A stretch of DNA of 64,000 bases from positions 16,308,001 through 16,372,000 of the forward strand of contig OZ076409.1 in the NCBI GenBank assembly GCA_964187785.1, read 5' to 3'. The notes under the pieces are model-generated. The model was not told the DNA's origin. It searched no databases and saw nothing but the letters and a program-made list of their open reading frames with translations. Both the position numbers and the translations under genes were made by a program. Numbering within the stretch: the first letter of the stretch is position 1; every line of letters starts with the position of its first letter. This stretch comes from Amphiscolops sp. MND2022 (Eukaryota). This document shows positions 1 to 64,000 of the stretch, piece by piece.

Positions 1-2718
1 CCAGCCTCGGCTGCACATCTGTTCACACACTATGATAAAAGGTATAATACATTTAGTCGTTTAGACTACTTTTTTACATCGAGTGTTGACTTCTCTCTCG
101 AAACTGAAGTCATTCCTTTTTCGGATCACAAGTTAATTAAGCTTTGTGAAGCGGCATCTTTTACTCCAGCAAACAGTCATTGGAAATTAAATGACAACAT
201 TCTGCAGTATCACCATGCAGTACGGGAGGTTTTGGTGAGTTCTATTGCATCCCGGTCTACGGATTCAGAGTGTATCCTATCGAACTATGATGTCATTAAA
301 AATCTTGTTAGGGATAAACTCCGTATCTTTTGTATCCAGAATCATAGACGTAATCTTTTTGAAGAAAATCACCTGAAAGAACTAATACTTGGTGCAGAGA
401 AATATCTACAAATTTTTGGCGTAGATTCCAAAACTATTTCTCGTCTTTCAGATTTAAATAAAAAATTGATGGAACTCCAGCACCAGAATGCTCGTAAATG
501 CCTTAAACAGGTGAAAATGTTTTATGTTGATGCCAATCATGGTGATCCTCAAGTTATTAAAAAACACCTTTCAAATATGAGAAAATCCGTACATATTTCT
601 CAAATACAAGACGACAATGGTGAGGTCTTGACTACTGATGAGCAGATTTTTGAAGCTTTTCATATGCATTACTCAGATCGTTTTTCCATTCCGCAGGTCA
701 ATATCAATAATGATTCCCATGTCAAGCAGCTGCAAGATGACATTATTGGTACTTTTTGTAGTGTTAAGAGATCTGATATTGAAAATATTCGCACTCTAAC
801 CAGAGACCGGGATATGATTAGTGAACAAGAAGTTATTAATGCCATTACCAAATTGAATTCTGAAAGTGCTCCTGGTCCTGATGGCCTCACTTCCAACTTT
901 TATAAAGCTCATCAGGAAGTTCTGAGTCCTCTACTCTGCAGGCTGTTTAACCAGATGGTTACTGATGGTTGGATGCCGCTATCTTTCTCCAGAGCCATTA
1001 TAAAACTGATTCCTAAAAAACCCAACGCCAATCGTGTTGAAGATTTTCGTCCCATCAGTCTTATTAATACAGACCAAAAAATACTCTCTCATATTTTGTC
1101 GGAACGAGTTCGCATTCCTGTTGATAAGCTTATTGGTCCCCACCAATCTGCTTATCTTCCTGGGCGTCACATACACTCTTCTTTATTGAAAGTCTCCTTA
1201 AACTTGGAAACCATGCCGTCAAATAATTCTCTCATCGCTATTGATTTTAGCAAAGCCTTTGATAAACTAAGTCGAACATTTATCTTTGCGTTATTAGAAA
1301 AAATTGGCTTGCACGAAAACACAGTCAAATTGATTCGCATCATGTATATGCATAATATTGCCTATCTTGACATCAATGGTCAACTCTCTCAACCTGTTCT
1401 TATGGAAAATGGAGTTAGGCAAGGCTGCCCTTTATCCGCGCTCATTTTTATTCTAGGCATTGAACCCCTTCTTCATGCAATTCAGCACTCCTTCAACATT
1501 AGATCGGATATGCCGTTTAAAATTATCTCGTATGCGGATGATCTTACTTGTGGTATTCACACTGATAATATTCAAGATCTTTTTGATATCATTGATACAT
1601 TTTCTGGCGTTACGAATTTATCTGTTAATCAATCTAAAACTGAAATTCTTACATTGAGTAGTCTTCGTCCTCCTCTCCAATCTTGTGACGTTGTTAAAAT
1701 ACTGGGTGTTCACTTTAGTTTGGGCAACTCTGCTAGACCTTTCTCTGACTTCATGAACTATGCGCAACGAAGTGGTCAGTATTGTAACAAATACAATACT
1801 CTAATAGCTCGTGCGCGAAATATTCATACATTTGTTATGCAAAAATTAGTTCATGAAATTCGCCATCTTTATGTCCTAAGGCCTCAATTAGACAAAATTG
1901 ATAGTATTTTCATTGATGCTATTTGGCTTGGCCGCAAACACAATCTAAGTAAATTTATTCTCCAGAGACCATGGTCGGCGATGGGTATTGGTCTTCGGAA
2001 TTTCCGTCAAACTATTGTTTCTTCCAAAATTATCGACTGCTTCAACTTTCTCTACGAAAACAATTTGCCCGATAATCTTAAACTGTTACTCCAATCTAGG
2101 TTTTTTAGAAATCTTAAATCCTTGTGTCGCACATTTAAATGCTCCATTTCCTTTCCAAACTCCACCACCTGTACTCTTTCTATTGATGACCGTCAACTTG
2201 TGATTTCCACCCCTCTTCCCACTAAAAAAATTTATCATTTTCTTACAGACCGGTCAACTTCGGCAGCTTTTTGCCGAATCTCTAGTATGGCAGAGAAATT
2301 ATCTGTTCCTGCTTTTTCTATCTTTTCCTTCATCCGTCACTTGTGGAAGCATCCCTCGTATGCTGCTTTCGAGAAAAATTATTTATATCTGTTTTTCCTT
2401 AATTGCTACTTAGAGAAAACCAAAAAACAAGATTTGGGCTTAGTGTTTTCAGCTCATTGCTGTTTTTGTGGTGTTGAAGACGAAACCTTCTCACATCTTA
2501 TTACTGAATGTCAGCATATTCCATCTCTCAATTTCTTTAAAACTCCTAGTGATTGCTGTCTAGATTTTCAAAACATGAATGCAATTTACCCTTTCAAACG
2601 TCTGATAGCTCTCCTAATTTCCTCATGGAGCGAAGATCCGCTCAGATTCTCTAAGTATTTTTTGAATTGTGTCTCCTTAAGGCATCCAACCATTCTTAAC
2701 CATCAGGCTGTAACGTAA
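1..2718 (+). CDS. Family A ORF2, partial (end of APE endonuclease, reverse transcriptase, C-terminal Cys/His finger); open throughout the visible part
   Basis: Frame open from base 1; SRLDY and FSDHK (APE), SAPGPDG, FRPISLIN, IDFSKAFD, GVRQGCPLS, YADD (1531), CCFC..H..C. Confidence 0.95.
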   Translation, partial: PASAAHLFTHYDKRYNTFSRLDYFFTSSVDFSLETEVIPFSDHKLIKLCEAASFTPANSHWKLNDNILQYHHAVREVLVSSIASRSTDSECILSNYDVIKNLVRDKLRIFCIQNHRRNLFEENHLKELILGAEKYLQIFGVDSKTISRLSDLNKKLMELQHQNARKCLKQVKMFYVDANHGDPQVIKKHLSNMRKSVHISQIQDDNGEVLTTDEQIFEAFHMHYSDRFSIPQVNINNDSHVKQLQDDIIGTFCSVKRSDIENIRTLTRDRDMISEQEVINAITKLNSESAPGPDGLTSNFYKAHQEVLSPLLCRLFNQMVTDGWMPLSFSRAIIKLIPKKPNANRVEDFRPISLINTDQKILSHILSERVRIPVDKLIGPHQSAYLPGRHIHSSLLKVSLNLETMPSNNSLIAIDFSKAFDKLSRTFIFALLEKIGLHENTVKLIRIMYMHNIAYLDINGQLSQPVLMENGVRQGCPLSALIFILGIEPLLHAIQHSFNIRSDMPFKIISYADDLTCGIHTDNIQDLFDIIDTFSGVTNLSVNQSKTEILTLSSLRPPLQSCDVVKILGVHFSLGNSARPFSDFMNYAQRSGQYCNKYNTLIARARNIHTFVMQKLVHEIRHLYVLRPQLDKIDSIFIDAIWLGRKHNLSKFILQRPWSAMGIGLRNFRQTIVSSKIIDCFNFLYENNLPDNLKLLLQSRFFRNLKSLCRTFKCSISFPNSTTCTLSIDDRQLVISTPLPTKKIYHFLTDRSTSAAFCRISSMAEKLSVPAFSIFSFIRHLWKHPSYAAFEKNYLYLFFLNCYLEKTKKQDLGLVFSAHCCFCGVEDETFSHLITECQHIPSLNFFKTPSDCCLDFQNMNAIYPFKRLIALLISSWSEDPLRFSKYFLNCVSLRHPTILNHQAVT

Positions 2719-2864
2719 CTAAGTTCAATTATATTTATATCTTGCAACCAATGAACCATTCACTTACTTTGATTAGCTACTGAATTGTCTGAATTATGAA
2801 CTTGGTCTACGCTATTTGATTGATTCATTTGTTCCTACTGATTTACTGTAATTAATTCTTTAAA
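1..2864 (+). mobile_element. Family A L1/Tx1-type non-LTR retrotransposon, copy A1 (5' part outside window)
   Basis: Near-identical to the 3' part of 9946-14879; ends ATTCTTTAAA followed by SL exon AGCCTAATTG. Confidence 0.95.
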
Positions 2865-2865
2865 A

Positions 2866-3000
2866 GCCTAATTGTTGTGATAAACTTATTAAATAGGTAA
2901 GTATTCCAACCCTATTGATAAGTTTTATTTGAAAGCAGACTGCGAAAGTGGTCTGCTGCCCAATTTTTGAACAAGGAACAAGCTAGTCTGCACTAACTTA
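2866..3000 (+). ncRNA. SL RNA sequence regenerated by TSD downstream of A1 (separated from its upstream flank)
   Basis: Exon 2866-2896, GT at 2897, Sm site 2962-2970. Confidence 0.75.
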
Positions 3001-3064
3001 AAAGTTACGCGTATTTTGACCGAGAAAATTTTCGTATCATTGTACGTAATTTTGTTGTTAAGCA

Positions 3065-3070
3065 TATAAA
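3065..3070 (+). promoter_or_regulatory. TATA-like element upstream of 5S (present in every unit)
   Basis: TATAAA at -27..-22 relative to the 5S start. Confidence 0.6.
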
Positions 3071-3091
3071 GCTATTGATTCTACAATGATC

Positions 3092-3210
3092 GACTACGAC
3101 CATACCATGTTGAATGCACCGGTTCTCGTCCGATCACCGAAGTTAAACAACATAGGGCCTGGTTAGTACTTGGATGGGAGACCGCTTGGGAACACCAGGT
3201 GTTGTAGCCT
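3092..3210 (+). rRNA. 5S rRNA: 5S rRNA (G>A at position 2 in this copy)
   Basis: Canonical eukaryotic 5S: CTACGACCATACC...CCGATCACCGAAGTTAA...TTAGTACTTGGATGGGAGACCGCTTGGGAACACCAGGTGTTGTAGCCT plus T-run. Confidence 0.98.
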
Positions 3211-3215
3211 TTTTT
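3210..3215 (+). terminator. Pol III terminator of 5S (every unit)
   Basis: T6 run at the 5S 3' end. Confidence 0.85.
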
Positions 3216-3220
3216 GTCAG

Positions 3221-3460
3221 AAATGTGGTTTAACTTCGGTGACAGTTTTGCAAAAGGGGTCAAATTGAAAAGATAGCAAAAAACGGACAACGCCATTAGA
3301 AAGAGCGTCCAAAAAAACCCCCATGCTGAAATTTTCGCCGCCATCACTTGAATTTTCATTGAGTTATGTCATTTTTACTATTTTCACAAAATGTGGTTTA
3401 ACTTCGGTGACAGTTTTGCAAAAGGGGTCAAAATGAACAGATAGCAAAAAACGGACAACG
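3221..3460. repeat. 72-bp direct subrepeat in the spacer (3221-3292 and 3389-3460; every unit)
   Basis: AAATGTGGTTTAACTTCGGTGACAG...CGGACAACG twice with 2 mismatches, 168-bp offset. Confidence 0.9.
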
Positions 3461-3769
3461 GCACTGGAAAGAGGGCCCAAAATTACCCCTAAAACGTGTT
3501 TTTCACACTCCTGAGTCGACTTTTGATAATACATGGAATTTCATTTTTAAGCTTACTAATTTATGCTTTTCAGCATACATTTTCGTAATAGAGTCAAAAT
3601 TTTGCTTTCTCACAATTTTTCTGGAATATTTTTGTTTCATCAGATGTCAATAACTTGAAACGTCGTCTTTTCATGAGAATTTCTCCTCAAAACAAGTTGT
3701 TGGCTGGTAATGGTAAGTCCGTACCGCAGATAGGACTCTCGCGCTCCAAAAATTGACTCTTTGCTTTTA

Positions 3770-3904
3770 GCCTAATTGTTGTGATAAACTTATTAAATAG
3801 GTAAGTATTCCAACGCTATTGATAAGTTTTATTTGAAAGCAGACTGCGAAAGTGGTCTGCTGCCCAATTTTTGAACAAGGAACAAGCTAGTCTGCACTAA
3901 CTTA
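3770..3904 (+). ncRNA. SL RNA gene, uninterrupted (ends approximate; the 5' end may extend to ACTCTTT about 14 nt upstream)
   Basis: AG|GTAAG donor in a long hairpin, GCAGACTGC-GAAA-GTGGTCTGC hairpin, Sm site AATTTTTGA, terminal hairpin; linked to 5S. Confidence 0.85.
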
Positions 3905-3995
3905 AAAGTTACGCGTATTTTGACCGAGAAAATTTTCGTATCATTGTACGTAATTTTGTTGTTAAGCATATAAAGCTATTGATTCTACAATGATC

Positions 3996-4114
3996 GGCTA
4001 CGACCATACCATGTTGAATGCACCGGTTCTCGTCCGATCACCGAAGTTAAACAACATAGGGCCTGGTTAGTACTTGGATGGGAGACCGCTTGGGAACACC
4101 AGGTGTTGTAGCCT
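3996..4114 (+). rRNA. 5S rRNA: 5S rRNA
   Basis: Canonical 5S sequence plus T6 terminator. Confidence 0.98.
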
Positions 4115-4689
4115 TTTTTGTCAGAAATGTGGTTTAACTTCGGTGACAGTTTTGCAAAAGGGGTCAAATTGAAAAGATAGCAAAAAACGGACAACGCCAT
4201 TAGAAAGAGCGTCCAAAAAAAACCCATGCTGAAATTTTCGCCGCCATCACTTGAATTTTCATTGAGTTATGTCATTTTTACTATTTTCACAAAATGTGGT
4301 TTAACTTCGGTGACAGTTTTGCAAAAGGGGTCAAAATGAACAGATAGCAAAAAACGGACAACGGCACTGGAAAGAGGGCCCAAAATTACCCCTAAAACGT
4401 GTTTTTCACACTCCTGAGTCGACTTTTGATAATACATGGAATTTCATTTTTAAGCTTACTAATTTATGCTTTTCAGCATACATTTTCGTAATAGAGTCAA
4501 AATTTTGCTTTCTCACAATTTTTCTGGAATATTTTTGTTTCATCAGATGTCAATAACTTGAAACGTCGTCTTTTCATGAGAATTTCTCCTCAAAACAAGT
4601 TGTTGGCTGGTAATGGTAAGTCCGTACCGCAGATAGGACTCTCGCGCTCCAAAAATTGACTCTTTGCTTTTAGCCTAATTGTTGTGATA

Positions 4690-6123
4690 CTGCGGTAGCA
4701 GCAATTATTTGACCAAATTCATTCTCTCTCGCATCTGCTGAGGCAGGGACGATTATCTCACTTGAAAGAATGCCTAATTTCCTTACATTGGACTTTATAA
4801 TACCTTACTCCAAAGAAGAAATTACTAATCCTTCTCTAAAGCTTGTTACTTACAAAAGCTTTCTTTGCTCGTTACTTAAATGTTTACCTAGTGACGCTGT
4901 TAAACGCGTGACCTGCATGAAATTGCACGTGTACAAACATGCGCCGCACGAAAAGAAACTTGAGAGCGTCAAAGTTATCGGTCCAATTTCATTACAAAAC
5001 GAGTTTAATTCCATTATTTCTGATGGAATTTTGTTCAAAAATCGCAAGATTTATGCTCTACAAAACCACGATGTTACGTCCAATGCTTACCCCAAGCAAT
5101 TTACGATCAAATTTCGTATTTTACCACACTTCTTTCCTGATACCGATGTTATTTCGGCTTGCAATTTGAAAGATTTCAAACTTTCAAAGTTACGACACCA
5201 ATTAGAGAAACTTTCTGAGGAAATTGAAACCTACACAGGCATTTGTTATGCGGATGTGGAAATCCAGGACGAAGCCCAATTACAACAGCTCATTTCATGG
5301 AATGAAACCAGCTTTTTGAACAAATACTATCTAGAAGAAATTCCATTTAAATGCCAAATTCAAACATTACTACAATGCGATTTCTGCAGACAAAAGAAGC
5401 TCCAGTTTTTGGGGCACCATGTACGCCAATGCAAAGCCAAAAAGACACAATTAGAACCAGAATCTGAGGAAGATAGCATCTCAACCACGAAAACAAATGA
5501 AGAAAAAGAACTAGAAGCCACAGATGCAAACAAGAATAACACAGAACATACTTTCTATATTGATTTAGAAAAATGCCAAATTCGAAACATACATGACATG
5601 GACGAACTCCATAAAGGATTTAGCAAGCTTCTTGCTTTACAGGAATGCAAGCCTGTGAATGTCTTGAATGACAACAATGTAGTGAAAAACCAACTACGAC
5701 ATGTGAAGAATATTACTGAAGAAAAACAGCGGAAGCTTTTCAAACAACAAAACAGATGGGGAAGTCCTTCATCAGACGTCCCAATCAAGAACTTCTCAGA
5801 GTTTTGTGAACTCCGGGGAAAGCTAGATGTGTTCTACGACTCAACAAAAGGCGAAGAAACCCTTTACCTGATGAACCTATCCAAGAAAGTGACCCACATT
5901 TTCAAAAAGAAACAACAACCAAACTAACAAAACTACATTATACTAATTTTCAAACTTTGATTTCCATGTTAAATCAAAACTCTCATATTATACAATCATC
6001 ACCAACCAAGTCTTTCATTTACTCAATACTATAAGTATGCTAAGTTATTCATACTCAACACTTTAGTATTAATGTAAAGACTATTTGATTTATAAAGGCA
6101 AATTTCCAAATACATTCTTTAAA
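4690..6123 (+). mobile_element. Family B ORF1-only (HAL1-like) non-autonomous element, copy B1 (1.43 kb)
   Basis: 18-bp TSD AGCCTAATTGTTGTGATA (4672-4689 and from 6124); single ORF; no RT; 3' end ATTCTTTAAA. Confidence 0.9.
4770..5927 (+). CDS. Family B ORF1-like protein (385 aa) with extra C-terminal domain
   Basis: YPK..IKFR.LPHF, YTG, CDFC-X9-H-HVRQ-C align with the ORF1s of A/C/D/E. Confidence 0.85.
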   Translation: MPNFLTLDFIIPYSKEEITNPSLKLVTYKSFLCSLLKCLPSDAVKRVTCMKLHVYKHAPHEKKLESVKVIGPISLQNEFNSIISDGILFKNRKIYALQNHDVTSNAYPKQFTIKFRILPHFFPDTDVISACNLKDFKLSKLRHQLEKLSEEIETYTGICYADVEIQDEAQLQQLISWNETSFLNKYYLEEIPFKCQIQTLLQCDFCRQKKLQFLGHHVRQCKAKKTQLEPESEEDSISTTKTNEEKELEATDANKNNTEHTFYIDLEKCQIRNIHDMDELHKGFSKLLALQECKPVNVLNDNNVVKNQLRHVKNITEEKQRKLFKQQNRWGSPSSDVPIKNFSEFCELRGKLDVFYDSTKGEETLYLMNLSKKVTHIFKKKQQPN

Positions 6124-6124
6124 A

Positions 6125-6259
6125 GCCTAATTGTTGTGATAAACTTATTAAATAGGTAAGTATTCCAACCCTATTGATAAGTTTTATTTGAAAGCAGACT
6201 GCGAAAGTGGTCTGCTGCCCAATTTTTGAACAAGGAACAAGCTAGTCTGCACTAACTTA
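6125..6259 (+). ncRNA. SL RNA sequence downstream of B1
   Basis: Same SL sequence. Confidence 0.75.
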
Positions 6260-6350
6260 AAAGTTACGCGTATTTTGACCGAGAAAATTTTCGTATCATT
6301 GTACGTAATTTTGTTGTTAAGCATATAAAGCTATTGATTCTACAATGATC

Positions 6351-6469
6351 GGCTACGACCATACCATGTTGAATGCACCGGTTCTCGTCCGATCACCGAA
6401 GTTAAACAACATAGGGCCTGGTTAGTACTTGGATGGGAGACCGCTTGGGAACACCAGGTGTTGTAGCCT
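6351..6469 (+). rRNA. 5S rRNA: 5S rRNA
   Basis: Same sequence. Confidence 0.98.
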
Positions 6470-7045
6470 TTTTTGTCAGAAATGTGGTTTAACTTCGGTG
6501 ACAGTTTTGCAAAAGGGGTCAAATTGAAAAGATAGCAAAAAACGGACAACGCCATTAGAAAGAGCGTCCAAAAAAACCCCCATGCTGAAATTTTCGCCGC
6601 CATCACTTGAATTTTCATTGAGTTATGTCATTTTTACTATTTTCACAAAATGTGGTTTAACTTCGGTGACAGTTTTGCAAAAGGGGTCAAAATGAACAGA
6701 TAGCAAAAAACGGACAACGGCACTGGAAAGAGGGCCCAAAATTACCCCTAAAACGTGTTTTTCACACTCCTGAGTCGACTTTTGATAATACATGGAATTT
6801 CATTTTTAAGCTTACTAATTTATGCTTTTCAGCATACATTTTCGTAATAGAGTCAAAATTTTGCTTTCTCACAATTTTTCTGGAATATTTTTGTTTCATC
6901 AGATGTCAATAACTTGAAACGTCGTCTTTTCATGAGAATTTCTCCTCAAAACAAGTTGTTGGCTGGTAATGGTAAGTCCGTACCGCAGATAGGACTCTCG
7001 CGCTCCAAAAATTGACTCTTTGCTTTTAGCCTAATTGTTGTGATA

Positions 7046-9027
7046 CGGCGTTACTCTGTCAGCCTGCAAACTTTGTTTGCACAGCGCCATCTTGCAAATT
7101 TTGCAGCAAAAGTTGCAAAAGTAATGACTAATTTGAACACGAGTGAGCTTGATCAACATCATAATGAAAATGTTGAGCAAAATTGTTACAAAAATGCAGT
7201 TATTTCCTTGTCGAAATCGAACTCAAATATGGACAAATTACCAATTATTATCAACTTTGCCTTACCACTGACATCTGAAATGTTCAAAAACAGCAAATTA
7301 CTGGATTCAATGTTTGTGGAAGCTGTTATGGCCGTCAAAAACCGACTTAACTCCAATGAAATTACCATCTTCAAAACTACAATTTTACGCAACAAAGGCA
7401 ATTTGAAGTGTATTACTGTGATCATTCCTTACAAACTTGAAAATGCAGCTTCCTCTCTTATTCACGAGGGCATTACTCTTCGCAATCGGAAAATACGGCC
7501 TTATTCTGTCAATTATTCCAACCCGAACAACAATGTCTATCCAAAAAGATTACCAATATCTTTCCGAAACCTACCACACTTTCTGACGGATGAGGATATT
7601 TTGAGTAGCTGTGGTCTTCAAAACTTCAAATTTAGTAGCAAAATTTTTCATCAACAACGACGACTTCCTGATAGCAGCCTTTTTTATACAGGAGAGGCAA
7701 GAATTACAGTTTTAATTGACAATGAGAATGAGGAAAGTTTACTACAAAACTGGGCCAATAATGCATATGACAAAATGTTTAGTTCCAGTGGCATTTTTTT
7801 CAAATGTTGCTGTATCCCACTCCTCGAATGCTCTTTATGCGTCAATGAGAACCTTCCCAGTGCTCATCAACAATCAAGATGCCCAAAACAACTATCAGAC
7901 GAACAGCAAATACAGAAAAACAGTGAATCTCAGAACCAGAAGTTAACAACTGACTACGTTATGGAAACTGCAGAAACAGAGCCAATGTCTAATGAACCTG
8001 AACTGTCAGATTCAGATGATGCTGAACCAATCTCAAAGGCACCAAAGCAGACCGATGATGGTACTGAAACCGAATGCAACAACAACGTGGCAGAAACTGA
8101 ACAACCATGCATTAACAACTCAAAGAAAGATACCATTCCTATGCAAAAACCTAAACTAATGCATCGCTCAACTGAATGGAAATCCTCAACAGACCTTGCC
8201 CGAAATCAAGCAGATGACCAACAGTCAACGGCAAAGCATGGATATCATGAATACCCATTCTTTTTGGAAAAGAAACAAAACAAAATACTGGCACCCGAAA
8301 CTATTTTCAACGAAATACCTCCTATAAAAGAACATGTGATCAAAACCCAACAAACTTCTGGCTACATCAATACACTAGACAAGGAAAAGAAAATTCAAAG
8401 GACCTTTTCACTCGTACAACCACTGAAGAAAGAAAAACTCGAAGATCTTTTATCTGAATCAAACTGGAAACATTCTGACTCTAACACTATTTTAACTTCT
8501 CATTTTGAATTTTACTCATTGATCCGGAAGTTTGATCCATTCTATGATGCTACAAACCACCAAATTTACACTATTAATCTGGAGAATAAAATTGTACAAG
8601 TTTTCACTGCAGTTGAAAACTTATACAATGAAAACAAAAACTAAACTGAAAAATTTCGGACCTTTTTGACTGGAACTTTAAAGTTCTAAATCTCTACAAT
8701 ACCATCATCAATCAACCCAATTCCCAATTCTTTTCGAGCACTAGTTGTTCGCAACCTGTATGCAAAAAACGGGTTTTGAAAACAAACTCCTTCCAGGAGC
8801 AAACATCTTTTTTTCATACATTCTCCAAACTACATTATACTAACTTCATACCTAAAAAAAAACATTCCCATTTTGGCGCTTTCTCAAAAATGCCATAACC
8901 AAGCATCTTCATCTACATACTTCAGCTTTTTCAACACTTCAGTTACTCATAAACTCATTTTATACCTATACCTTAGACTTCATTACTTTTTACTTGTAAA
9001 TTCTCAGTTTTCAATAAATTCTTTAAA
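7046..9027 (+). mobile_element. Family C ORF1-only non-autonomous element, copy C1 (1.98 kb)
   Basis: 18-bp TSD AGCCTAATTGTTGTGATA; single ORF; 3' end AATAAATTCTTTAAA. Confidence 0.9.
7124..8644 (+). CDS. Family C ORF1-like protein (506 aa from first ATG) with extra C-terminal domain
   Basis: YPKRLPISFRNLPHF, FYTGEARI, CSLC-X8-H-QQSR-C; the ORF-track start at 7040 is a GTG inside the TSD. Confidence 0.85.
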   Translation: MTNLNTSELDQHHNENVEQNCYKNAVISLSKSNSNMDKLPIIINFALPLTSEMFKNSKLLDSMFVEAVMAVKNRLNSNEITIFKTTILRNKGNLKCITVIIPYKLENAASSLIHEGITLRNRKIRPYSVNYSNPNNNVYPKRLPISFRNLPHFLTDEDILSSCGLQNFKFSSKIFHQQRRLPDSSLFYTGEARITVLIDNENEESLLQNWANNAYDKMFSSSGIFFKCCCIPLLECSLCVNENLPSAHQQSRCPKQLSDEQQIQKNSESQNQKLTTDYVMETAETEPMSNEPELSDSDDAEPISKAPKQTDDGTETECNNNVAETEQPCINNSKKDTIPMQKPKLMHRSTEWKSSTDLARNQADDQQSTAKHGYHEYPFFLEKKQNKILAPETIFNEIPPIKEHVIKTQQTSGYINTLDKEKKIQRTFSLVQPLKKEKLEDLLSESNWKHSDSNTILTSHFEFYSLIRKFDPFYDATNHQIYTINLENKIVQVFTAVENLYNENKN

Positions 9028-9028
9028 A

Positions 9029-9163
9029 GCCTAATTGTTGTGATAAACTTATTAAATAGGTAAGTATTCCAACCCTATTGATAAGTTTTATTTGAAAGCA
9101 GACTGCGAAAGTGGTCTGCTGCCCAATTTTTGAACAAGGAACAAGCTAGTCTGCACTAACTTA
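9029..9163 (+). ncRNA. SL RNA sequence downstream of C1
   Basis: Same SL sequence. Confidence 0.75.
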
Positions 9164-9254
9164 AAAGTTACGCGTATTTTGACCGAGAAAATTTTCGTAT
9201 CATTGTACGTAATTTTGTTGTTAAGCATATAAAGCTATTGATTCTACAATGATC

Positions 9255-9373
9255 GGCTACGACCATACCATGTTGAATGCACCGGTTCTCGTCCGATCAC
9301 CGAAGTTAAACAACATAGGGCCTGGTTAGTACTTGGATGGGAGACCGCTTGGGAACACCAGGTGTTGTAGCCT
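9255..9373 (+). rRNA. 5S rRNA: 5S rRNA
   Basis: Same sequence. Confidence 0.98.
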
Positions 9374-10163
9374 TTTTTGTCAGAAATGTGGTTTAACTTC
9401 GGTGACAGTTTTGCAAAAGGGGTCAAATTGAAAAGATAGCAAAAAACGGACAACGCCATTAGAAAGAGCGTCCAAAAAAACCCCCATGCTGAAATTTTCG
9501 CCGCCATCACTTGAATTTTCATTGAGTTATGTCATTTTTACTATTTTCACAAAATGTGGTTTAACTTCGGTGACAGTTTTGCAAAAGGGGTCAAAATGAA
9601 CAGATAGCAAAAAACGGACAACGGCACTGGAAAGAGGGCCCAAAATTACCCCTAAAACGTGTTTTTCACACTCCTGAGTCGACTTTTGATAATACATGGA
9701 ATTTCATTTTTAAGCTTACTAATTTATGCTTTTCAGCATACATTTTCGTAATAGAGTCAAAATTTTGCTTTCTCACAATTTTTCTGGAATATTTTTGTTT
9801 CATCAGATGTCAATAACTTGAAACGTCGTCTTTTCATGAGAATTTCTCCTCAAAACAAGTTGTTGGCTGGTAATGGTAAGTCCGTACCGCAGATAGGACT
9901 CTCGCGCTCCAAAAATTGACTCTTTGCTTTTAGCCTAATTGTTGTTCACGCGTCGGTTGGTTAGTTATCTTTGACTTTTGACTTCTGATTGTGAAAAACT
10001 TTTTTGACGAGTTTTTAACACATAGTACCGCTAAAACTCTAGAAGTTTAACGAAAAAATTGTTTATTTGGGTTTATACCCCTTTGCACTTTACCCCCTCT
10101 GGGTTTATACCCCCCCCCTTGGGTTTATACTCCCTTTTGGATAGAGGATAGGAAAACGACTTC

Positions 10164-11495
10164 ATGATTCTTGACGACGATGTTGCTTCTGGGAATGTGG
10201 ACGTAACAAAAATGCCGATGGATGGTCACGACAATACTGAATATATTCCACCTATTGAAAGCCTCAGCCTTGTTCAATTGTCGGAGCAATCGCAATCTGG
10301 GTCTCCGTCACTTACACCACCACCAACATCTTCTCTACAGAACATACAATCGGCAATAAACACGCAATTATACAGCGCTGTTGCAGGTGCCAACACTCCA
10401 CCATCTCGCACGACAGCAATAATTAAAATGAAAATCATTCCACCATTACAAAAACAACACTTCACAACCAAGGACAACTTCACTACTGCAACCAATCAAT
10501 GTTTTTCAGCAATTTTACGTTGCTTTCCACCTACATACAGACAACAGCTTACTATTTCAAAATCATTTACAATTGTCGGGACAAGACATTTGCATTCAAT
10601 TAATGTAGTGGCGCCTGTCACAGCCCAGGACATTGTATCAAAATTGCAAACAACAGGAATATCAATGCTTGGCAAAACTGTATTTCCATCGACAGACAAC
10701 TTTCTCACTAATTTACCTGGACTCTATCCACGATACACTCAAGTGAGACTTCTACATGCACCAGCACAATGCGATGACGAGACCTTAACAGAACTATTAC
10801 ATCTTCCGGCAGATACGACAATCATAGGATTCAAACGTCAGACAGACACGATTGATGGTATGTCCTTTTTCAATGGCAAAATAGCATGCACGATAAAAAT
10901 CAACAATACAACTCATGAAGAAGAACTACGACAATGGTCGTTGGATCAACATGAAAATCCCACAATGATTTGGGAGGAGATTCCTATCTTTGCATTTATT
11001 CCCTCACTTCACAATTGCACTTTCTGTAAACAACATAACAAACCTCACTTTGGACATGACATTGCCTGGTGCAAACATGCAAAAGCACATCCAACGACTC
11101 CACCATCACCTCCTCTACCACAACAGACATCAACTACAACTTCGCAGATGCCTCTGCCTCCTCCTTCTTCTTCTGCTACTCCATCTGTTATTGCGCCAAC
11201 TCCTCCTACTTTGGTTAACAACAACTTGGGTTTAGCTGACGTACCTGTTACAACGACTGATGATTGGCAACCTGTAACTAAGAAGACTTTCCCTAAACAC
11301 AGTTTGGTTAGAACGAGGTCTGTTATCAAGGCGAAAAGACCAAAACACCCGAGCCCTGTAACTGAAGTTAACCCCAATTTGACAGAACCTACGATGACGG
11401 CACCGTTCCTTCCGACTACACCCATTTACAATTCATTTGACAGCAAGCGGTATTCTAAATCTTCCAGGTCTAAACATGATAGTGTTCAGCCTTAA
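10164..11495 (+). CDS. Family A ORF1 (443 aa), nucleic-acid-binding protein with CCHC-like knuckle and Pro/Thr-rich tail
   Basis: Lies upstream of and overlaps ORF2; CTFC-X9-H-DIAW-C; homologous to D and E ORF1. Confidence 0.88.
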   Translation: MILDDDVASGNVDVTKMPMDGHDNTEYIPPIESLSLVQLSEQSQSGSPSLTPPPTSSLQNIQSAINTQLYSAVAGANTPPSRTTAIIKMKIIPPLQKQHFTTKDNFTTATNQCFSAILRCFPPTYRQQLTISKSFTIVGTRHLHSINVVAPVTAQDIVSKLQTTGISMLGKTVFPSTDNFLTNLPGLYPRYTQVRLLHAPAQCDDETLTELLHLPADTTIIGFKRQTDTIDGMSFFNGKIACTIKINNTTHEEELRQWSLDQHENPTMIWEEIPIFAFIPSLHNCTFCKQHNKPHFGHDIAWCKHAKAHPTTPPSPPLPQQTSTTTSQMPLPPPSSSATPSVIAPTPPTLVNNNLGLADVPVTTTDDWQPVTKKTFPKHSLVRTRSVIKAKRPKHPSPVTEVNPNLTEPTMTAPFLPTTPIYNSFDSKRYSKSSRSKHDSVQP

Positions 11496-14400
11496 TTGTA
11501 GAGGACTGAAGGATCCTCTTCGCCTTGCCATAACTCTGACTGCTTGTCAGCGTCATGGTGTGAAAAATTTTGTTCTTTTCCTACAAGAAACTAAGATTTC
11601 TGAATTTTCTATCAATCATAGAAAACTACTTACACAACACCATCTCTCGTACTGCATGGTTCCTGCCTCTGATACTGCAGGTGGATTGGTGACAATTTTT
11701 CCGTCTTCTTTCCACATAACTTACCGTTTTAACAATGAATCCATGCTCCTATTGCGTTTTCAAGAATATAATATCACTTTTAGCAACTGTTATGTCAATC
11801 CGCTTGATTTTCATCTGGAAAAGCTTAATCATGGTTTCCAACAGCTTTCTCTTCTATCTTCTAGTTCTCACATACTTGGTGGAGATTTTAACTGTTTATC
11901 AACCCGTGCTGACACATCTAATGTTAATATTCGAAGTAATGATTTCCGCTTACTTCGTTTTCGAAAACGTATGAATCTTATGCACCTGCTGGATGTCACA
12001 CCATGTGCTCCAGCCTCGGCTGCACATCTGTTCACACACTATGATAAAAGGTATAATACATTTAGTCGTTTAGACTACTTTTTTACATCGAGTGTTGACT
12101 TCTCTCTCGAAACTGAAGTCATTCCTTTTTCGGATCACAAGTTAATTAAGCTTTGTGAAGCGGCATCTTTTACTCCAGCAAACAGTCATTGGAAATTAAA
12201 TGACAACATTCTGCAGTATCACCATGCAGTACGGGAGGTTTTGGTGAGTTCTATTGCATCCCGGTCTACGGATTCAGAGTGTATCCTATCGAACTATGAT
12301 GTCATTAAAAATCTTGTTAGGGATAAACTCCGTATCTTTTGTATCCAGAATCATAGACGTAATCTTTTTGAAGAAAATCACCTGAAAGAACTAATACTTG
12401 ATGCAGAGAAATATCTACAAATTTTTGGCGTAGATTCCAAAACTATTTCTCGTCTTTCAGATTTAAATAAAAAATTGATGGAACTCCAGCACCAGAATGC
12501 TCGTAAATGCCTTAAACAGGTGAAAATGTTTTATGTTGATGCCAATCATGGTGATCCTCAAGTTATTAAAAAACACCTTTCAAATATGAGAAAATCCGTA
12601 CATATTTCTCAAATACAAGACGACAATGGTGAGGTCTTGACTACTGATGAGCAGATTTTTGAAGCTTTTCATATGCATTACTCAGATCGTTTTTCCATTC
12701 CGCAGGTCAATATCAATAATGATTCCCATGTCAAGCAGCTGCAAGATGACATTATTGGTACTTTTTGTAGTGTTAAGAGATCTGATATTGAAAATATTCG
12801 CACTCTAACCAGAGACCGGGATATGATTAGTGAACAAGAAGTTATTAATGCCATTACCAAATTGAATTCTGAAAGTGCTCCTGGTCCTGATGGCCTCACT
12901 TCCAACTTTTATAAAGCTCATCAGGAAGTTCTGAGTCCTCTACTCTGCAGGCTGTTTAACCAGATGGTTACTGATGGTTGGATGCCGCTATCTTTCTCCA
13001 GAGCCATTATAAAACTGATTCCTAAAAAACCCAACGCCAATCGTGTTGAAGATTTTCGTCCCATCAGTCTTATTAATACAGACCAAAAAATACTCTCTCA
13101 TATTTTGTCGGAACGAGTTCGCATTCCTGTTGATAAGCTTATTGGTCCCCACCAATCTGCTTATCTTCCTGGGCGTCACATACACTCTTCTTTATTGAAA
13201 GTCTCCTTAAACTTGGAAACCATGCCGTCAAATAATTCTCTCATCGCTATTGATTTTAGCAAAGCCTTTGATAAACTAAGTCGAACATTTATCTTTGCGT
13301 TATTAGAAAAAATTGGCTTGCACGAAAACACAGTCAAATTGATTCGCATCATGTATATGCATAATATTGCCTATCTTGACATCAATGGTCAACTCTCTCA
13401 ACCTGTTCTTATGGAAAATGGAGTTAGGCAAGGCTGCCCTTTATCCGCGCTCATTTTTATTCTAGGCATTGAACCCCTTCTTCATGCAATTCAGCACTCC
13501 TTCAACATTAGATCGGATATGCCGTTTAAAATTATCTCGTATGCGGATGATCTTACTTGTGGTATTCACACTGATAATATTCAAGATCTTTTTGATATCA
13601 TTGATACATTTTCTGGCGTTACGAATTTATCTGTTAATCAATCTAAAACTGAAATTCTTACATTGAGTAGTCTTCGTCCTCCTCTCCAATCTTGTGACGT
13701 TGTTAAAATACTGGGTGTTCACTTTAGTTTGGGCAACTCTGCTAGACCTTTCTCTGACTTCATGAACTTTGCGCAACGAAGTGGTCAGTATTGTAACAAA
13801 TACAATACTCTAATAGCTCGTGCGCGAAATATTCATACATTTGTTATGCAAAAATTAGTTCATGAAATTCGCCATCTTTATGTCCTAAGACCTCAATTAG
13901 ACAAAATTGATAGTATTTTCATTGATGCTATTTGGCTTGGCCGCAAACACAATCTAGGTAAATTTATTCTCCAGAGACCATGGTCGGCGATGGGTATTGG
14001 TCTTCGGAATTTCCGTCAAACTATTGTTTCTTCCAAAATTATCGACTGCTTCAACTTTCTCTACGAAAACAATTTGCCCGATAATCTTAAACTGTTACTC
14101 CAATCTAGGTTTTTTAGAAATCTTAAATCCTTGTGTCGCACATTTAAATGCTCCATTTCCTTTCCAAACTCCACCACCTGTACTCTTTCTATTGATGACC
14201 GTCAACTTGTGATTTCCACCCCTCTTCCCACTAAAAAAATTTATCATTTTCTTACAGACCGGTCAACTTCGGCAGCTTTTTGCCGAATCTCTAGTATGGC
14301 AGAGAAATTATCTGTTCCTGCTTTTTCTATCTTTTCCTTCATCCGTCACTTGTGGAAGCATCCCTCGTAGGCTGCTTTTGAGAAAAATTATTTATATCTG

Positions 14401-23635: not shown

Positions 23636-23636
23636 A

Positions 23637-49305: not shown

Positions 49306-49440
49306 GCCTAATTGTTGTGATAAACTTATTAAATAGGTAAGTATTCCAACCCTATTGATAAGTTTTATTTGAAAGCAGACTGCGAAAGTGGTCTGCTGCC
49401 CAATTTTTGAACAAGGAACAAGCTAGTCTGCACTAACTTA
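49306..49440 (+). ncRNA. SL RNA gene, uninterrupted
   Basis: As 3770-3904. Confidence 0.85.
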
Positions 49441-49531: not shown

Positions 49532-49650
49532 GGCTACGACCATACCATGTTGAATGCACCGGTTCTCGTCCGATCACCGAAGTTAAACAACATAGGGCCT
49601 GGTTAGTACTTGGATGGGAGACCGCTTGGGAACACCAGGTGTTGTAGCCT
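49532..49650 (+). rRNA. 5S rRNA: 5S rRNA
   Basis: Same sequence. Confidence 0.98.
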
Positions 49651-60110: not shown

Positions 60111-60687
60111 TTTTTGTCAGAAATGTGGTTTAACTTCGGTGACAGTTTTGCAAAAGGGGTCAAATTGAAAAGATAGCAAAAAACGGACAACGCCATTAGA
60201 AAGAGCGTCCAAAAAAACCCCCATGCTGAAATTTTCGCCGCCATCACTTGAATTTTCATTGAGTTATGTCATTTTTACTATTTTCACAAAATGTGGTTTA
60301 ACTTCGGTGACAGTTTTGCAAAAGGGGTCAAAATGAACAGATAGCAAAAAACGGACAACGGCACTGGAAAGAGGGCCCAAAATTACCCCTAAAACGTGTT
60401 TTTCACACTCCTGAGTCGACTTTTGATAATACATGGAACTTCATTTTTAAGCTTACTAATTTATGCTTTTCAGCATACATTTTCGTAATAGAGTCAAAAT
60501 TTTGCTTTCTCACAATTTTTCTGGAATATTTTTGTTTCATCAGATGTCAATAACTTGAAACGTCGTCTTTTCATGAGAATTTCTCCTCAAAACAAGTTGT
60601 TGGCTGGTAATGGTAAGTCCGTACCGCAGATAGGAGTCTCGCGCTCCAAAAATTGACTCTTTGCTTTTAGCCTAATTGTTGTGATAA

Positions 60688-61748
60688 TCAAAAAAACGTT
60701 GTTCTGTAATCAAAAAAACGTAGTCGTAAACAAAATCTTCCGGTTGAAAATTGTACCTCCTTTTCGCAAAGAACATTTCGAAAACAAAAATGCCCTCGAA
60801 ACTGAGATAGCAAAAGCTTATGCTGAAATCCTAAAACCATTCAAACCTCAAGTGCGAATGTACATTACAATTTCGAGAACTTTTGAAGAAAAATGGGGAA
60901 AACGACTTCACATTTTACATGTAACTGCCCCTGAAGAAGCGGAAGAAGACATCGAAAACATTAAAACTAAAGGTTTACAAATAATGGGCAGAACAGTATT
61001 TCCAACTGGAGACGATTTTTACCAAGTTCGTAATAGTCAATTTCCCCGGAAAGTGTGGGTAAAGATTAACAATTTGCCGTTTCTTTGCAGCGATGAAGTT
61101 TTACTCAGTCTACTAGACCTCCCAGAAGGAGTTGAGATTAGTGAAAATGTAACAAGAGAAACGATACAAACCGAAAATGGCACCATCCACAACGGAAAGG
61201 CAAAACTGTCAGTTGTGGTCCCAGACAGTGATAAACTCAAAGAACTCAAACAGTGGTCTTTGGAGAAAAGTCACATTTGCGTCACAAAATGGTTCGAAAT
61301 TCCGATTTATATGTCGACCCCAAGCCTGCACAAATGTGACGCTTGTGAAAAAGAAAATCGGAAATCGTACATTGGCCACGACATAGCGTGGTGCAGGGTT
61401 TTAAGGAAACCTGAAAAAACTGAGGAAGCTCCCGAAAGCTGCCAAGAAGAAACAGCGGACGAGTCACAAGCTGAACAAGAAAACGAAGTATGGGCTGACG
61501 CACCAACAAAATCCTTTCCAAACACAAACAAAAAGAACAAGAAAAGATCGAAGTCGAAATCCAAAGAGACCACCAGCCCTGGATTGATGCAGCAGAATAA
61601 ATTTCAGCTTCTTTCTACATCCAGTGACCAACCTGAAGCAATTCTAAGCGCAACGTCAACAATACAAATCCAGCCACCAAATCCAAAGAACCCGCAGCAC
61701 CCGGAAACGCCCTGTGAAGCACCCCTGGAAAGAAGCGACCATGGATGA
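60688..61748 (+). pseudogene. Family E ORF1 lacking its N-terminus/ATG
   Basis: RLKIVPP, GRTVFPT, INNLP, CDAC-X10-H-DIAW-C; no ATG before the conserved core. Confidence 0.8.
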
Positions 61749-64000
61749 AGAAATAGAAATTTTTTCAATTAATGCTAGAGGGTTAGCCTCAAATAAATCA
61801 AAATTAATTGAGATTTGCAACATTGTTAAGAAAAATAAAAAACATGAAACATTTTATGTACTGATACAAGAGACTAAGCTGGAAAAAATGAAACCGGAAC
61901 TTCTTAAAATAATTCAATATAACAATTTGTCTTTTTAAATAGTTCCCTCAGAAAATAAAAGTGGAGGTCTAATGATACTTTATGATAAAAACACCGAAAT
62001 AGAATTACTTGACAAGAACCAATGTTCCCTAACAATTCGAGACAAAAAATCGGATTCAATAATTATAAATACTTATGTGAATCCAAAACAGTACAATTTT
62101 CAGCCTCTCAAAGATACTATTGAAACACTAGAACTAACATGTGATCAAACTATTTATATGGGAGGGGATTTCAATGCCATCGATCCTTCAGATATCAATG
62201 AAGAAAACAAAACGTTCAATATGACTGTAAAATCAAATGATATTCGACTATTGCGATCCAAAAAACTAATACATTTGAACTCAAGTCTCCTTCTGATAGA
62301 TCTTGCGCAACTCTTACAGAATCGCCAACCAACGCATTTTGAAACACGGTCTGGAAAACAAAGCCGCATCGATTATATTTTTAGTAATAACCAAAATCTC
62401 ACCATCGAAAAAAAACAGGATCGAAACATTGCCCTTTGCTTTTTCCGACCACAAATGCCTCCACCTTTTTCGAAATAGCAACTATCAGTATTCTCAAAAA
62501 CTTTGGAAGCTCGATAACATTGTATTTAACTATCCGGAGAAAGTGAAGGAAATACTAGAAACATCTAAAGTCGCATCCGAAAAATTTGGGAACATTGTGT
62601 CTTGTCATGATATCTTTAAAGCGAAATTAAGAGATCAACTAAAATACCTTAGTGCTACAAGCAGGAAGATGCTAGTGAAACAAAAAGAAAAAATTCAGAT
62701 GGATATTGAAAAACTTGAAGAAAATGGTTCTAAGGGAAATTGTTCTGACCAACAGATCAAACAGAACTTAGAGCACCTGACATGCCTCAAAAATAATCTT
62801 CAATTGATCAAAAATGAAGAATCTGAAAATTCATTTCAACAAATCAAAAAATTCTTCAGGGAAGCCAATGATGGAAACACAAAAAATATCAAATGCTTAG
62901 CAAAAGCCTCAAGCTTAGCTAAGGATATCAAAAAGATTGAAAAACAAGATGGATCATTCACAGAAGATCCTGACGAAATTTTAAATGAATTCAAATCTTT
63001 TTATGAGAAACTTAGCCAACCAAAATGGAAACCAACAGAAACATCCTCGAAATCTCAGGATAAATTCATTGAAAAGTTTTTTAAACAAAAAAGGAAAAGC
63101 ATTGAAAACATTGAAAAATTGTTCAAAGAAACGTTGGAGGACCCCGACAACGAAATCACAGTATATGAAGTTGAAAAAGCTATCTCTAAACTGAACTCAA
63201 ACAGTGCTCCTGGATCGGATGGACTTACAAGTCAATTATACCAAAACCACAAAAACTTTTTTGCCCCGTATCTTTCAAATCTATTTAATAAAATCAATGA
63301 AAATGGAGAAGTTCCGGACTCATTTAAACATGCAATCATCAAAGTAATTCCTAAGAAGAATAATTCACTGAAGGTATCCGAATTTCGGCCAATTAGTCTC
63401 ATTAATACGGATCAAAAAATTCTTTCTCATGTTCTAGCAGAAAGACTTAAACCTATTTTATCAATATTAATTGGTAATCATCAAAACGCTCATTTACCAA
63501 ATAGAAATATACACATTGCCATACAAAAAATTCAGCATTACGCCCATGAAACTACTCGTAGTCAATCACTTATCGCTATTGACTTCAGTAAAGCTTGCGA
63601 CTGTGTAGAGCGTAGCTTTTTACAAAAACTGATTGAAAAAAGTCCAATCGATAAATTTACTCAAGAAATGATTTTACTTACGTACAAGGATACTTATGCT
63701 TTCATTGGAATGAAAAATGGAATTTCCACAAAATTCAAAATAGATAGAGGGGTGAGACAAGGCTGTCCTCTCTCAGCATTGATTTTCAATCTTTGCCTCG
63801 AACCTCTTCTACAAAGAATTCAAAAATCAAAATACATAAAATCAAAACAACAAACAAAATGTATCGCCTACGCAGATGATATAACGATCAGCCTCTACAA
63901 CAAATCTCTTCGGAAGCTATTGATAATATTGGATCATTTTCACGAAATAGCAGGCTTAGAAGTTAATTTAGCCAAAACTGAAATCCTTTCGAAAGCGGAC
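61741..64000 (+). pseudogene. Family E ORF2 (APE-RT) with in-frame TAA (61936-61938) and a frameshift near 62400-62440
   Basis: SINARGL, IQET, GGDFN, SRIDY, then SDHK, SAPGSDG, QGCPLS and YADD (63869) in another frame. Confidence 0.9.

Follow-up and report, generated by a model that had tools for sequence, protein, structure and literature searches.

L1-group LINEs with a probable home in the spliced-leader RNA genes of Amphiscolops sp. MND2022

The elements in this 64,000-nucleotide stretch of DNA (the window) are read here as site-specific LINEs of the L1 group, with an APE endonuclease and a reverse transcriptase (RT), that are at home in the SL RNA gene and insert by the steps proposed below; we put the probability of this reading at about 0.8. 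The window contains family A in three copies, B in nine, C in two, and D and E in one each. The initial annotation of five families at one site holds for the window and is a lower bound for the genome, in which the SL site carries at least 8 autonomous and at least 3 ORF1-only families. A literature search gave no earlier description of APE-based LINEs that target SL genes, in agreement with the novelty already proposed for the lineage.

The SL-5S array and the insertion point

The array consists of head-to-tail 904-bp units, each made of one SL RNA gene and one 5S rRNA gene. An Rfam search of the window finds 24 5S rRNA genes, all on the plus strand, scoring 113 to 117.5 bits, and the TTTTAGCCTAATTG motif occurs 24 times on that strand versus 0.03 expected from shuffles. 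There are 25 SL loci, 24 with a visible upstream half and one cut at the window start. Nine are empty (motif starts at 3765, 38495, 45494, 49301, 50205, 51109, 52013, 55953 and 59761) and 16 are occupied, always in the sense orientation relative to the SL gene, so that our recount agrees with the original one. The reference empty exon, as read from the sequence, is the 32-nt AGCC...AAATAG at 49305..49336 (plus strand), followed by a GTAAGT donor and then an Sm-like AATTTTTG site, and its unit has the 5S rRNA gene at 49532..49650 (plus strand; Rfam RF00001, 117.5 bits). No Rfam SL family scores above threshold in the window. Apart from its last base, the leader reported for the acoel Symsagittifera roscoffensis is contained whole in the window exon.

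Across the genome, 1143 empty sites are identical to the reference exon, and 132 of 1275 SL sites (about 10%) are occupied. The base before dispersed complete SL exons is A in at least 196 cases and another base in 43, which is consistent with an RNA whose first base is the A of AGCC; the first exon base is probably the transcription start of the SL gene.

Each of the 15 3' junctions that the window shows reads ...|AGCCTAATTG, with a single T>C change in the exon copy downstream of one element (B6), and the family E junction, which lies past the window end, is identical on the genome contig. The insertion point is directly 5' of base 49305 or of 49306, a 1-nt ambiguity (TTTT|AGCC or TTTTA|GCC). 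The single 3' junction noticed at the outset is thus confirmed, but it is at the first exon base rather than within the exon. Tails of the form TTYRRA|AGCC are common to the 132 occupied sites genome-wide, and the families with this junction in common have RT cores 40-54% identical to that of A. At the 5' side, exon bases are repeated: 12 in A2, 14 in A1, 17 in D, 18 in B and C, and 19 in E. A repeat had been described as an 11-19 bp duplication; it is there, measures 12-19 bp, and represents, at least in part, a 5' leader borne by the RNA rather than a simple target-site duplication. All B copies in the window have the same 18-nt junction.

The occupied loci are not 16 independent insertions, since ten of the 16 copies lie in a recent segmental duplicate. 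This block (1..33264, no strand), with A0, C1, B1, A1, A2 and B2 to B6, has its counterpart in the same array, some 36 kb further upstream, where window 1-9945 and 9028-33264 match at 99.9% over 9,945 and 24,239 bp and the element junctions come in the same order. Array duplication rather than insertion gave rise to many copies, and the 16/25 occupancy reflects a duplicated hot spot. Element copies are 98-100% identical to one another, and the families may be active at present.

Autonomous families, ORF1-only families and their kin

Family A measures 4.95 kb and D 5.19 kb; E is 4490 bp in full on the genome contig. A0 (1..2864, plus strand) is cut in its 5' part by the window start, with the C-terminal part of ORF2 open, and has a stop-to-stop frame of the long type (1109 aa), which is open in 13 of 20 A copies in the genome. 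A1 (9932..14879, plus strand) is full-length (4948 bp, 14 nt of which are SL leader) and encodes ORF1 of 443 aa (10164-11495) and ORF2 of 964 aa with APE and RT (11476-14370); its stop-to-stop frame, 990 aa, is below that of most A copies. A2 (15783..20731, plus strand; 4949 bp, 12-nt leader) is also full-length and is a separate insertion event from A1, because the 5' junctions differ. D1 (39403..44593, plus strand; 5191 bp) has a 17-nt leader, the tail ...AATTCTTTAGA, an ORF1 of 424 aa (39872-41146) and an RT-bearing frame (42125-44416), with the APE part interrupted in this copy. E1 (60669..64000, plus strand), cut by the window end, has a 19-nt leader and the tail ...AATTTTTGAA, with ORF1 at 60858-61748, an APE fragment at 61972-62478 and an RT frame starting at 62669.

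Pfam places Exo_endo_phos at residues 5-221 of A ORF2 (E = 1e-07) and RVT_1 at 515-750 (E = 2.5e-29), finds RVT_1 in D (7e-32), an APE fragment and RVT_1 in E, and no nuclease family other than APE in the elements. For a C-terminal Cys/His domain of the zf-RVT type (PF13966), scores are 21.6 bits in A0 and 22.5 bits in D, short of the Pfam cut-off of 27.5 bits. Of the solved retroelement proteins, the one closest to A ORF2 is human L1 ORF2p (E = 7.5e-57, residues 130-848); R2 proteins match at 4e-21 or weaker. By their predicted proteins, A, D and E, each with ORF1, APE endonuclease and RT, are L1-group non-LTR retrotransposons, and at ORF2 identities of 34% (A-D), 40% (A-E) and 48% (D-E) they are as diverged from each other as had been thought. 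A further family, G, has an ORF2 of 1090 aa that aligns end to end with that of A.

The ORF1-only families are shorter, with B at 2.0 kb and C at 1.45 kb. B1 (7028..9027, plus strand; 2000 bp, 18-nt leader) has an ORF of 506 aa at 7124-8644, and further plus-strand B copies lie at 21636-23635, 24539-26542, 27447-29444, 30348-32346, 33251-35249, 46401-48400, 53051-55052 and 56861-58860. C1 (4672..6123, plus strand; 1452 bp, 18-nt leader) has an ORF of 385 aa at 4770-5927, and C2 is at 36153-37600 (plus strand). The 506-aa ORF is intact in 5 of 9 window copies and in 19 of 24 B copies overall. It has no Pfam family, and the ORF1-only families have no Pfam RT or EN. By blastp, the B ORF is 20-29% identical to ORF1 of A, D, E and C, and the ORFs of B, C and F match ORF1 of A, D and E at E values of 1e-7 to 1e-28; C and F, with end-to-end frames of 385 and 387 aa, are 46% identical. 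Leader, site and a 3' box (WWTYTTYRAA) are common to B, C, F and the autonomous families, and the last 34-45 nt or so of B are found in autonomous family I. B and C, going by the homology of their putative proteins, are diverged ORF1-only non-autonomous dependents, so the parasites suspected earlier are indeed present, and the ORF2 proteins of the autonomous families presumably mobilise B, C and F in trans. Variants of the B ORF (27 synonymous and 54 non-synonymous, in copies that are related and not independent) and variable columns (5.3% of CDS versus 7.9% of UTR, with the same dependence among copies) hint weakly at selection.

In an RT tree whose outgroups are unlabelled proteins, none of them labelled Tx1, the SL families fall into two subclades, both well supported, within a single genome-specific clade (stem 0.68, support 100/100). 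The subclades speak in part for the independent origin and diversification in place that were first proposed, but the clade, the base of which is unresolved in the tree, has further members, namely a family associated with U2 and others that seem to be unspecific. In the U2-associated family, x1, which lies outside the window, both of the two copies examined adjoin a U2 snRNA gene (Rfam 135 and 40 bits), and U2 resumes after the element at about nt 19 (GGCTAAG), for a junction at about nt 18|19. An assignment of x1 as a Keno-type insertion is ruled out by this position, U2 resuming at nt 39 in Keno/Utopia according to the available part of PMC4640811.

That the SL elements are ordinary members of the Tx1 clade that gained one more target, with no independently evolved lineage, we hold to be an even proposition. 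Tx1-clade targets, as given in the accessible portions of PMC4494074 and PMC4640811, include U2 snRNA (Keno), 5S rRNA (Mutsu), tRNA arrays (Dewa), microsatellites (Kibi/Koshi) and, for Tx1L, Tx1D; these are multicopy genes and repeats (PMC4494074, in part). The elements here resemble them in having APE, RT and two ORFs including ORF1, in sense insertion at a single nucleotide of a small-RNA gene present in many copies, with a 3' junction that is precise and lacks poly(A), in needing no promoter of their own where the target is transcribed, and in having a sister family at U2 genes, like Keno. The genome-specific clade also groups, weakly (91/56), with zf-RVT-bearing invertebrate and vertebrate proteins and not with vertebrate L1-type ORF2 proteins, and sequence-specific insertion is typical of Tx1, although not defining. 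Against membership are the long stem, the best matches outside the clade at 25-27% identity, the U2 position unlike that of Keno/Utopia, and the absence of SL from the target lists in the parts of PMC4494074 and PMC4640811 at hand. Also unlike Tx1 LINEs, at least 8 autonomous families plus ORF1-only dependents occupy one site here.

Off-target copies and a proposed route of insertion

Families differ in fidelity. In A, the SL exon follows exactly at 18 of 20 3' ends, the other 2 being also in arrays, and all 20 of the A-family RT matches are on array-bearing contigs; in B, all 40 of the 3' ends that were scored are in array regions. Half of the ten youngest D 3' ends, by comparison, are outside SL genes at CTTTY|GCC-like sites, and the genome also contains an off-target E copy and an I relative. 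SL targeting, as first claimed for this APE-type lineage, is what genome-wide mapping of flanks returns for A and B, but specificity is leaky in the D/E/G/I subclade and not absolute.

All four full-length off-target D copies, 99-100% identical and flanked by unrelated DNA, begin with the start of the SL exon (17 nt in C9, 16 in C3, 15 in C7 and 14 in C5), with the same SL|D joint as in SL-resident D. The leader would thus be carried in the element RNA, and transcription would begin at the SL start site. Three off-target sites could be reconstructed, GGTGCTTTT|GCC, GTGTGCTTTC|GCCT and GTTTTATT|GCCT, the SL gene counterpart being CTTTGCTTTT|AGCCT, and each of the five off-target 3' junctions is the tail plus AGCC(T). 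Target duplications at off-target insertions are very long, 177 bp by measurement at one insertion and about 600 and 670 bp by extrapolation at two, with none found within 400 bp at another; such lengths suggest that second-strand events differ from those at SL sites.

In the route we propose, the element endonuclease would make a bottom-strand nick at CTTTT|(A)GCC, where the SL promoter meets the first base of the exon, and cDNA synthesis from that nick would give the invariant 3' junction without poly(A). A resident copy, 12-19 nt downstream of the SL start, would be transcribed from the SL promoter as an RNA of SL nt 1 to about 17 plus element, a use of the promoter that we infer from DNA copies. 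The leader would travel with the RNA and may pair with the homologous target strand, sealing the 5' junction at SL targets, which would make the apparent "TSD" length a family trait. The RNA probably extends by a few bases into the SL copy downstream, where pairing could help to register priming. Autonomous ORF2 proteins would move B, C and F, and segmental duplication of the array would further raise copy number in the window.

A loose, L1-like nuclease, with specificity mainly from homology between RNA and target (the 5' SL leader and the 3' read-through), seems unlikely to us, although SL nt 1-17 carried by the RNA, AGCC(T) microhomology at all off-target 3' junctions and a leader length fixed within each family would suit it. 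The nick preference of L1 is T/A-rich, and the proposed bottom-strand cut, 5'-GGCT/AAAA-3', is similar. However, the three off-target sites are SL-like upstream of the nick too (GCTTTT, GCTTTC, TTTATT), where the RNA cannot pair in priming, and 3-4 nt of homology is too short for the 20/20 (A) and 40/40 (B) on-target copies. Very improbable is that the elements are relics of a few ancient insertions copied by unequal crossing-over or gene conversion, none now active or truly site-specific: the 99.9% duplicate block of 33 kb, the one 18-nt junction of B, and head-to-tail element pairs that unequal exchange could yield would fit, but the same junction recurs in 12 or more unrelated families, the 5' junctions of A are of two kinds, the same families sit in arrays on at least 4 chromosome-scale contigs, near-identical D copies with SL leaders are on five other chromosomes, and many ORFs are intact.

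Comparison with other target-specific elements

CRE1, CRE2, SLACS and CZAR of trypanosomatids and NeSL-1 of nematodes also occupy the SL exon of tandem SL genes in the same orientation, with some of the exon preceding the element. The SL promoter is said to drive SLACS transcription, and SLACS and CZAR insert between SL nt 11 and 12, inside the exon, whereas the cut here is at exon base 1. These elements have a C-terminal restriction-like endonuclease (RLE) and no APE, according to the part of PMC4640811 available; those of the window have an N-terminal APE, no other Pfam nuclease and an L1-like RT, and are thereby ruled out as CRE/NeSL members. The likeness is convergence on a target, not kinship.

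R1 and R2 in 28S rDNA, different in target and clade, are similar as diverged lineages that coexist long at one tandem-multigene site and are co-transcribed with it, array recombination shaping copy number. R2 RNA is freed by a ribozyme; the copies described here keep the leader, and a search of the window against Rfam gives no ribozyme family. Target-homologous RNA ends are used by R1/R2 in junction formation (work cited in PMC4494074, in part).

Between the U2 site, CCTTTT|GGCTAA, and that in SL genes, GCTTTT|AGCCTAA, there is a resemblance on which we base a proposal of target switching between Sm-class RNA genes. At slightly less than even odds, we would join this to the rest as a self-contained guild in an animal genome, made up of at least 8 autonomous and at least 3 ORF1-only LINE families that lives only in SL RNA genes, uses the SL promoter, keeps the first 17 or so SL nt as a homing and repair leader and has a common 3' box of about 10 nt. 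If true, SL parasitism was invented a second time, on an APE basis and convergently with the RLE-based CRE/NeSL, and the ORF1-only lines are long-lived coding parasites of the guild.

A parallel to those lines is HAL1 ("half-L1"), the ORF1-only L1 derivatives of mammals. B, C and F likewise have an intact ORF1 homologue without ORF2, and the insertion site and 3' end of autonomous elements. Unlike HAL1 they are site-specific, and they form at least two deeply diverged lines (B and C/F), with 20-29% identity to the autonomous ORF1s here.

The array, the SL gene and the resident families

The window is a head-to-tail array on the + strand with a 904-bp unit and a GC content of about 37%, each unit containing a 5S rRNA gene (24 Rfam matches at 113-117 bits in the window) and an SL RNA gene. 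As read from the sequence, the SL exon runs AGCC...AAATAG and is followed by GTAAGT, with an Sm-like AATTTTTG site further on that has a stem at its flanks. PMC9911081 gives a reconstruction of the trans-spliced leader of the acoel Symsagittifera roscoffensis, and this exon contains that leader. The GC content of the window is likewise in line with the S. roscoffensis genome, so that the window very probably belongs to this species or to one closely related. The main text and supplement of that paper make no mention of 5S linkage or of insertions in SL genes. One SL intron has a 130-bp insert (52064-52193), which holds intron sequence in inverted orientation and has a 16-bp direct repeat at its flanks; the resulting unit variant measures 1034 bp, a spacing that recurs elsewhere in the array.

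Parsing of all SL halves gives 25 SL loci in the window, 9 empty and 16 with an element, all in SL sense, just as the initial annotation had counted them. The junction motif occurs 24 times in the window, against 0.03 expected by chance. The residents belong to family A (3 copies, 4.95 kb), B (9 copies, 2.0 kb), C (2 copies, 1.45 kb), D (1 copy, 5.19 kb), and E (1 copy, cut by the window end, with a length of 4490 bp elsewhere in the genome). The claim of one common 3' junction is confirmed, as it reads tail|AGCCTAATTG in 15 of the 15 cases visible in the window, and the E junction beyond the window is identical. On the 5' side, 12 to 19 exon bases stand in front of the element.

A, D, and E each encode an ORF1 and an ORF2, the latter with Pfam APE and RT domains, and their ORF2 proteins are 34-48% identical, which agrees with their earlier description as clearly diverged APE-plus-RT elements. 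A ORF2 matches human L1 ORF2p with E = 7.5e-57, and R2 proteins are matched far more weakly. A 1109-aa ORF2 frame is found in 13 of 20 A copies, among them the one at the window start, and the stop-to-stop ORF2 frames of the other two window copies are 990 aa (11476-14370) and 1007 aa (17329-20274). The ORF2 frames of D and E are interrupted in the window copies, but copies elsewhere in the genome have frames about 1100 and 1139 aa long, respectively.

Copies, events and genome-wide occupancy

Positions 1-33264 of the window duplicate, at 99.9% identity and apart from one empty unit, a stretch that lies about 36 kb upstream, and the family order A, C, B, A, A, B, B, B is seen again in genome-wide junction lists, so the local copy count is inflated by array duplication. 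Independent insertion events are nonetheless shown by the five families having no DNA-level relatedness, by the 2 distinct A 5' joints (14 and 12 nt), by the presence of the same families in arrays of several chromosome-scale contigs, and by additional families at the same site.

Across the assembly searched (1.07 Gb, 1929 contigs) there are 1143 exact empty SL sites, and an element-type tail TTYRRA precedes 132 sites, with 3 of the first 100 listed lying outside arrays. Comparing the 132 tailed with the 1143 empty sites gives an occupancy of about 10%, and the window is part of the densest patch. The flanks were mapped genome-wide, as had been proposed, with family counts that are lower bounds. 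The SL exon follows exactly after 18 of 20 A 3' ends, the remaining 2 also being within arrays, and A-type RT matches are on array-bearing contigs in 20 of 20 cases. All 40 scored B 3' ends, taken from 90 candidates, are within array regions, but of the 10 youngest D 3' ends only 5 are in SL genes and 5 are off target on other chromosomes.

Classification covered 68 junctions in about 230 kb of array DNA, and an RT search of the genome scored 87 of 5454 candidates. Further autonomous residents of the SL site are families G (6019 bp, with an ORF1 of 730 aa and an ORF2 of 1090 aa), H, I, J, and K, together with a D-like family, and a further ORF1-only resident is family F in 2 variants; the count of 5 families thus holds for the window but not for the genome. 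In the C1 array beyond the window (excerpts C1big at 14578, 26712, and 39794, and C1m_a at 6802), there are element pairs arranged head to tail, with an 18-19-nt SL leader alone as the spacer. Such pairs would result either from insertion at the SL copy that follows an element already in place or from unequal exchange between units.

Transcription start, leader and target site

Four of the off-target D copies are full length, and all 4 open with the first 14-17 nt of the SL exon, in unrelated flanks, with an SL|D joint exactly that of the SL-resident D. A leader and an identical joint in unrelated DNA suggest that the retrotransposing RNA has its start at SL +1, the SL transcription start, or right beside it. 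The D RNA would then be a co-transcript from the SL promoter, and we infer from these DNA copies that the 12-19 bp "duplication" is RNA-borne; exon bases are indeed repeated upstream of the elements, as had been noted, but the term duplication probably misdescribes them. A template switch onto SL RNA is rejected as the origin of the leader, since only nt 1-17 are found and the joint is that of the SL-resident D. No 5' ribozyme is found in the window at the Rfam gathering threshold, where 5S is the only match, and the retention of the leader in off-target copies argues against 5' processing. At an SL target, the leader-complementary cDNA end could pair with the target, which would hold the repeat length constant within a family. 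The evidence for capture of the SL promoter is unusually direct, and the off-target copies are rare DNA-level evidence for where a LINE transcript starts.

Complete SL exons are also dispersed outside the arrays; the base in front of the exon is A in at least 196 of them and not A in 43. Should they derive from SL-bearing RNAs by retrocopying, the SL RNA would start at the A of AGCC, and the element 3' junction would be within one base of the transcription start and not internal to the SL exon, where the initial annotation had placed the insertion. The dispersed exons number several hundred genome-wide, with none in the window, and resemble either retrocopied trans-spliced RNAs or SL-carrying transposon families. 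In the 10 that were read (L108-L117), the exon is joined straight to unrelated sequence in every case, with TTTC(A/C) next in 6, and several run into Cys/His-rich ORFs. In genome annotation, both these copies and the arrays will distort counts of SL genes and maps of trans-splicing.

Three off-target D pre-integration sites were rebuilt from long flanking duplications, of 177 bp as measured and about 600 and 670 bp as extrapolated, compared with the 12-19-nt leader at SL sites. They read GGTGCTTTT|GCC, GTGTGCTTTC|GCCT, and GTTTTATT|GCCT, and the equivalent position in the SL gene reads CTTTGCTTTT|AGCCT. The likeness to the SL gene continues on the upstream side of the nick, in a stretch with which the priming RNA cannot pair, and so points to an endonuclease preference of about CTTTY|GCC. 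The off-target D 3' joints read tail+A+GCC(T) in 5 of 5 cases at targets without that A, which fits an RNA 3' end reaching into the SL copy; the D RNA would extend at least 1 base into the downstream SL copy. The DNA around one off-target D copy (C7) is similar to the 5' region of family B.

Relatives, dependents and novelty

In the RT-core tree (41 rows, LG+G4, unlabelled outgroups), a single clade (100/100) on a long stem takes in all 18 sequences that come from this genome or from its nearest relatives in the database. One SL subclade joins A, H, and one database protein (99/98); a second joins D, J, K, E, G, and I (100/99), and it also contains a relative of I at 90% identity and an E copy that is off target; the remaining clade members are dispersed. 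Since the tree gives no clear branching order at the clade base, the proposal that the lineage diversified in place can be kept within each SL subclade but not for all SL families jointly. Matches outside the clade have only 25-27% identity, and a Tx1 over an L1 placement is weakly favored, as the clade groups, with weak support, apart from vertebrate L1-type proteins and has a target-specific habit.

A member of the same clade, x1, adjoins U2 snRNA genes (Rfam 135 and 40 bits) in both copies examined (C5:28.06 Mb, L104; C4:81.1 Mb, L105), with a tail ...AAATTATTTAAA after which U2 resumes at about nt 19, a position different from that of Keno/Utopia as given in the accessible part of PMC4640811. 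The x1 site, CCTTTT|GGCTAA, is similar to that in the SL gene, and the SL, U2, and off-target sites together define a short motif, offering a natural experiment in how an L1-type endonuclease gains single-site specificity. The clade members x2/x3 have an A-rich tail at the 3' end and unrelated flanks. Despite deeply diverged RTs, at least 12 SL families and x1 all follow WWTYTTYRAA in their terminal 10-12 nt (window 14868-14879, 9016-9027, 6112-6123, and 44582-44593; excerpt L021 4547-4558). The E and H tails also bear an apparent likeness to the -18..-6 segment of the SL gene itself.

Target-specific APE LINEs are an already known kind, and SL genes are not among the Tx1 targets given in the accessible parts of PMC4494074 and PMC4640811. 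The SL-specific LINEs found in full-text literature searches are only of the restriction-like-endonuclease type, namely the trypanosomatid and nematode elements CRE, SLACS, CZAR, and NeSL, whereas the guild here uses APE, so that its presence at SL genes is a convergent choice of "safe harbour". What appears to be new is the SL target for target-specific APE LINEs, the large multi-family guild, and its coding dependents. It is also a natural experiment in how many rival lineages and protein-coding dependents a niche of about 1,300 sites can hold, and in host tolerance of about 10% SL gene loss.

The dependents B and C have ORFs of 506 and 385 aa and no other coding content. These are distant homologs of the A, D, and E ORF1 (20-29% identity), which rules out a SINE-like nature. 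The F ORF (387 aa) aligns end to end with that of C at 46% identity, and by this comparison selection for coding evidently acts on both, as 2 frames could not otherwise stay open through such divergence. The full ORF is retained in 19 of 24 B copies, with a weak codon-position signal. B and the autonomous family I have about 34-45 terminal bases in common, the pattern expected of a dependent element and its partner. The earlier suggestion that the lineage carries its own parasites stands as far as B and C being ORF1-only and the B tail being shared with I; mobilization in trans would be the further step. ORF1 matches no family in Pfam at E <= 0.01 and, by sequence, nothing in the PDB at E <= 1. 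Its AlphaFold model, from 5 sequences, has a pLDDT of 70.7 and a pTM of 0.40, and resembles tandem RRM proteins (HuR, probability 0.99) with a TM score of only 0.20-0.27. A Cys/His motif, C-x2-C-x10-H-x4-5-C, follows the modeled core, which is provisionally described as 2 RRM-like domains with a Cys/His knuckle.
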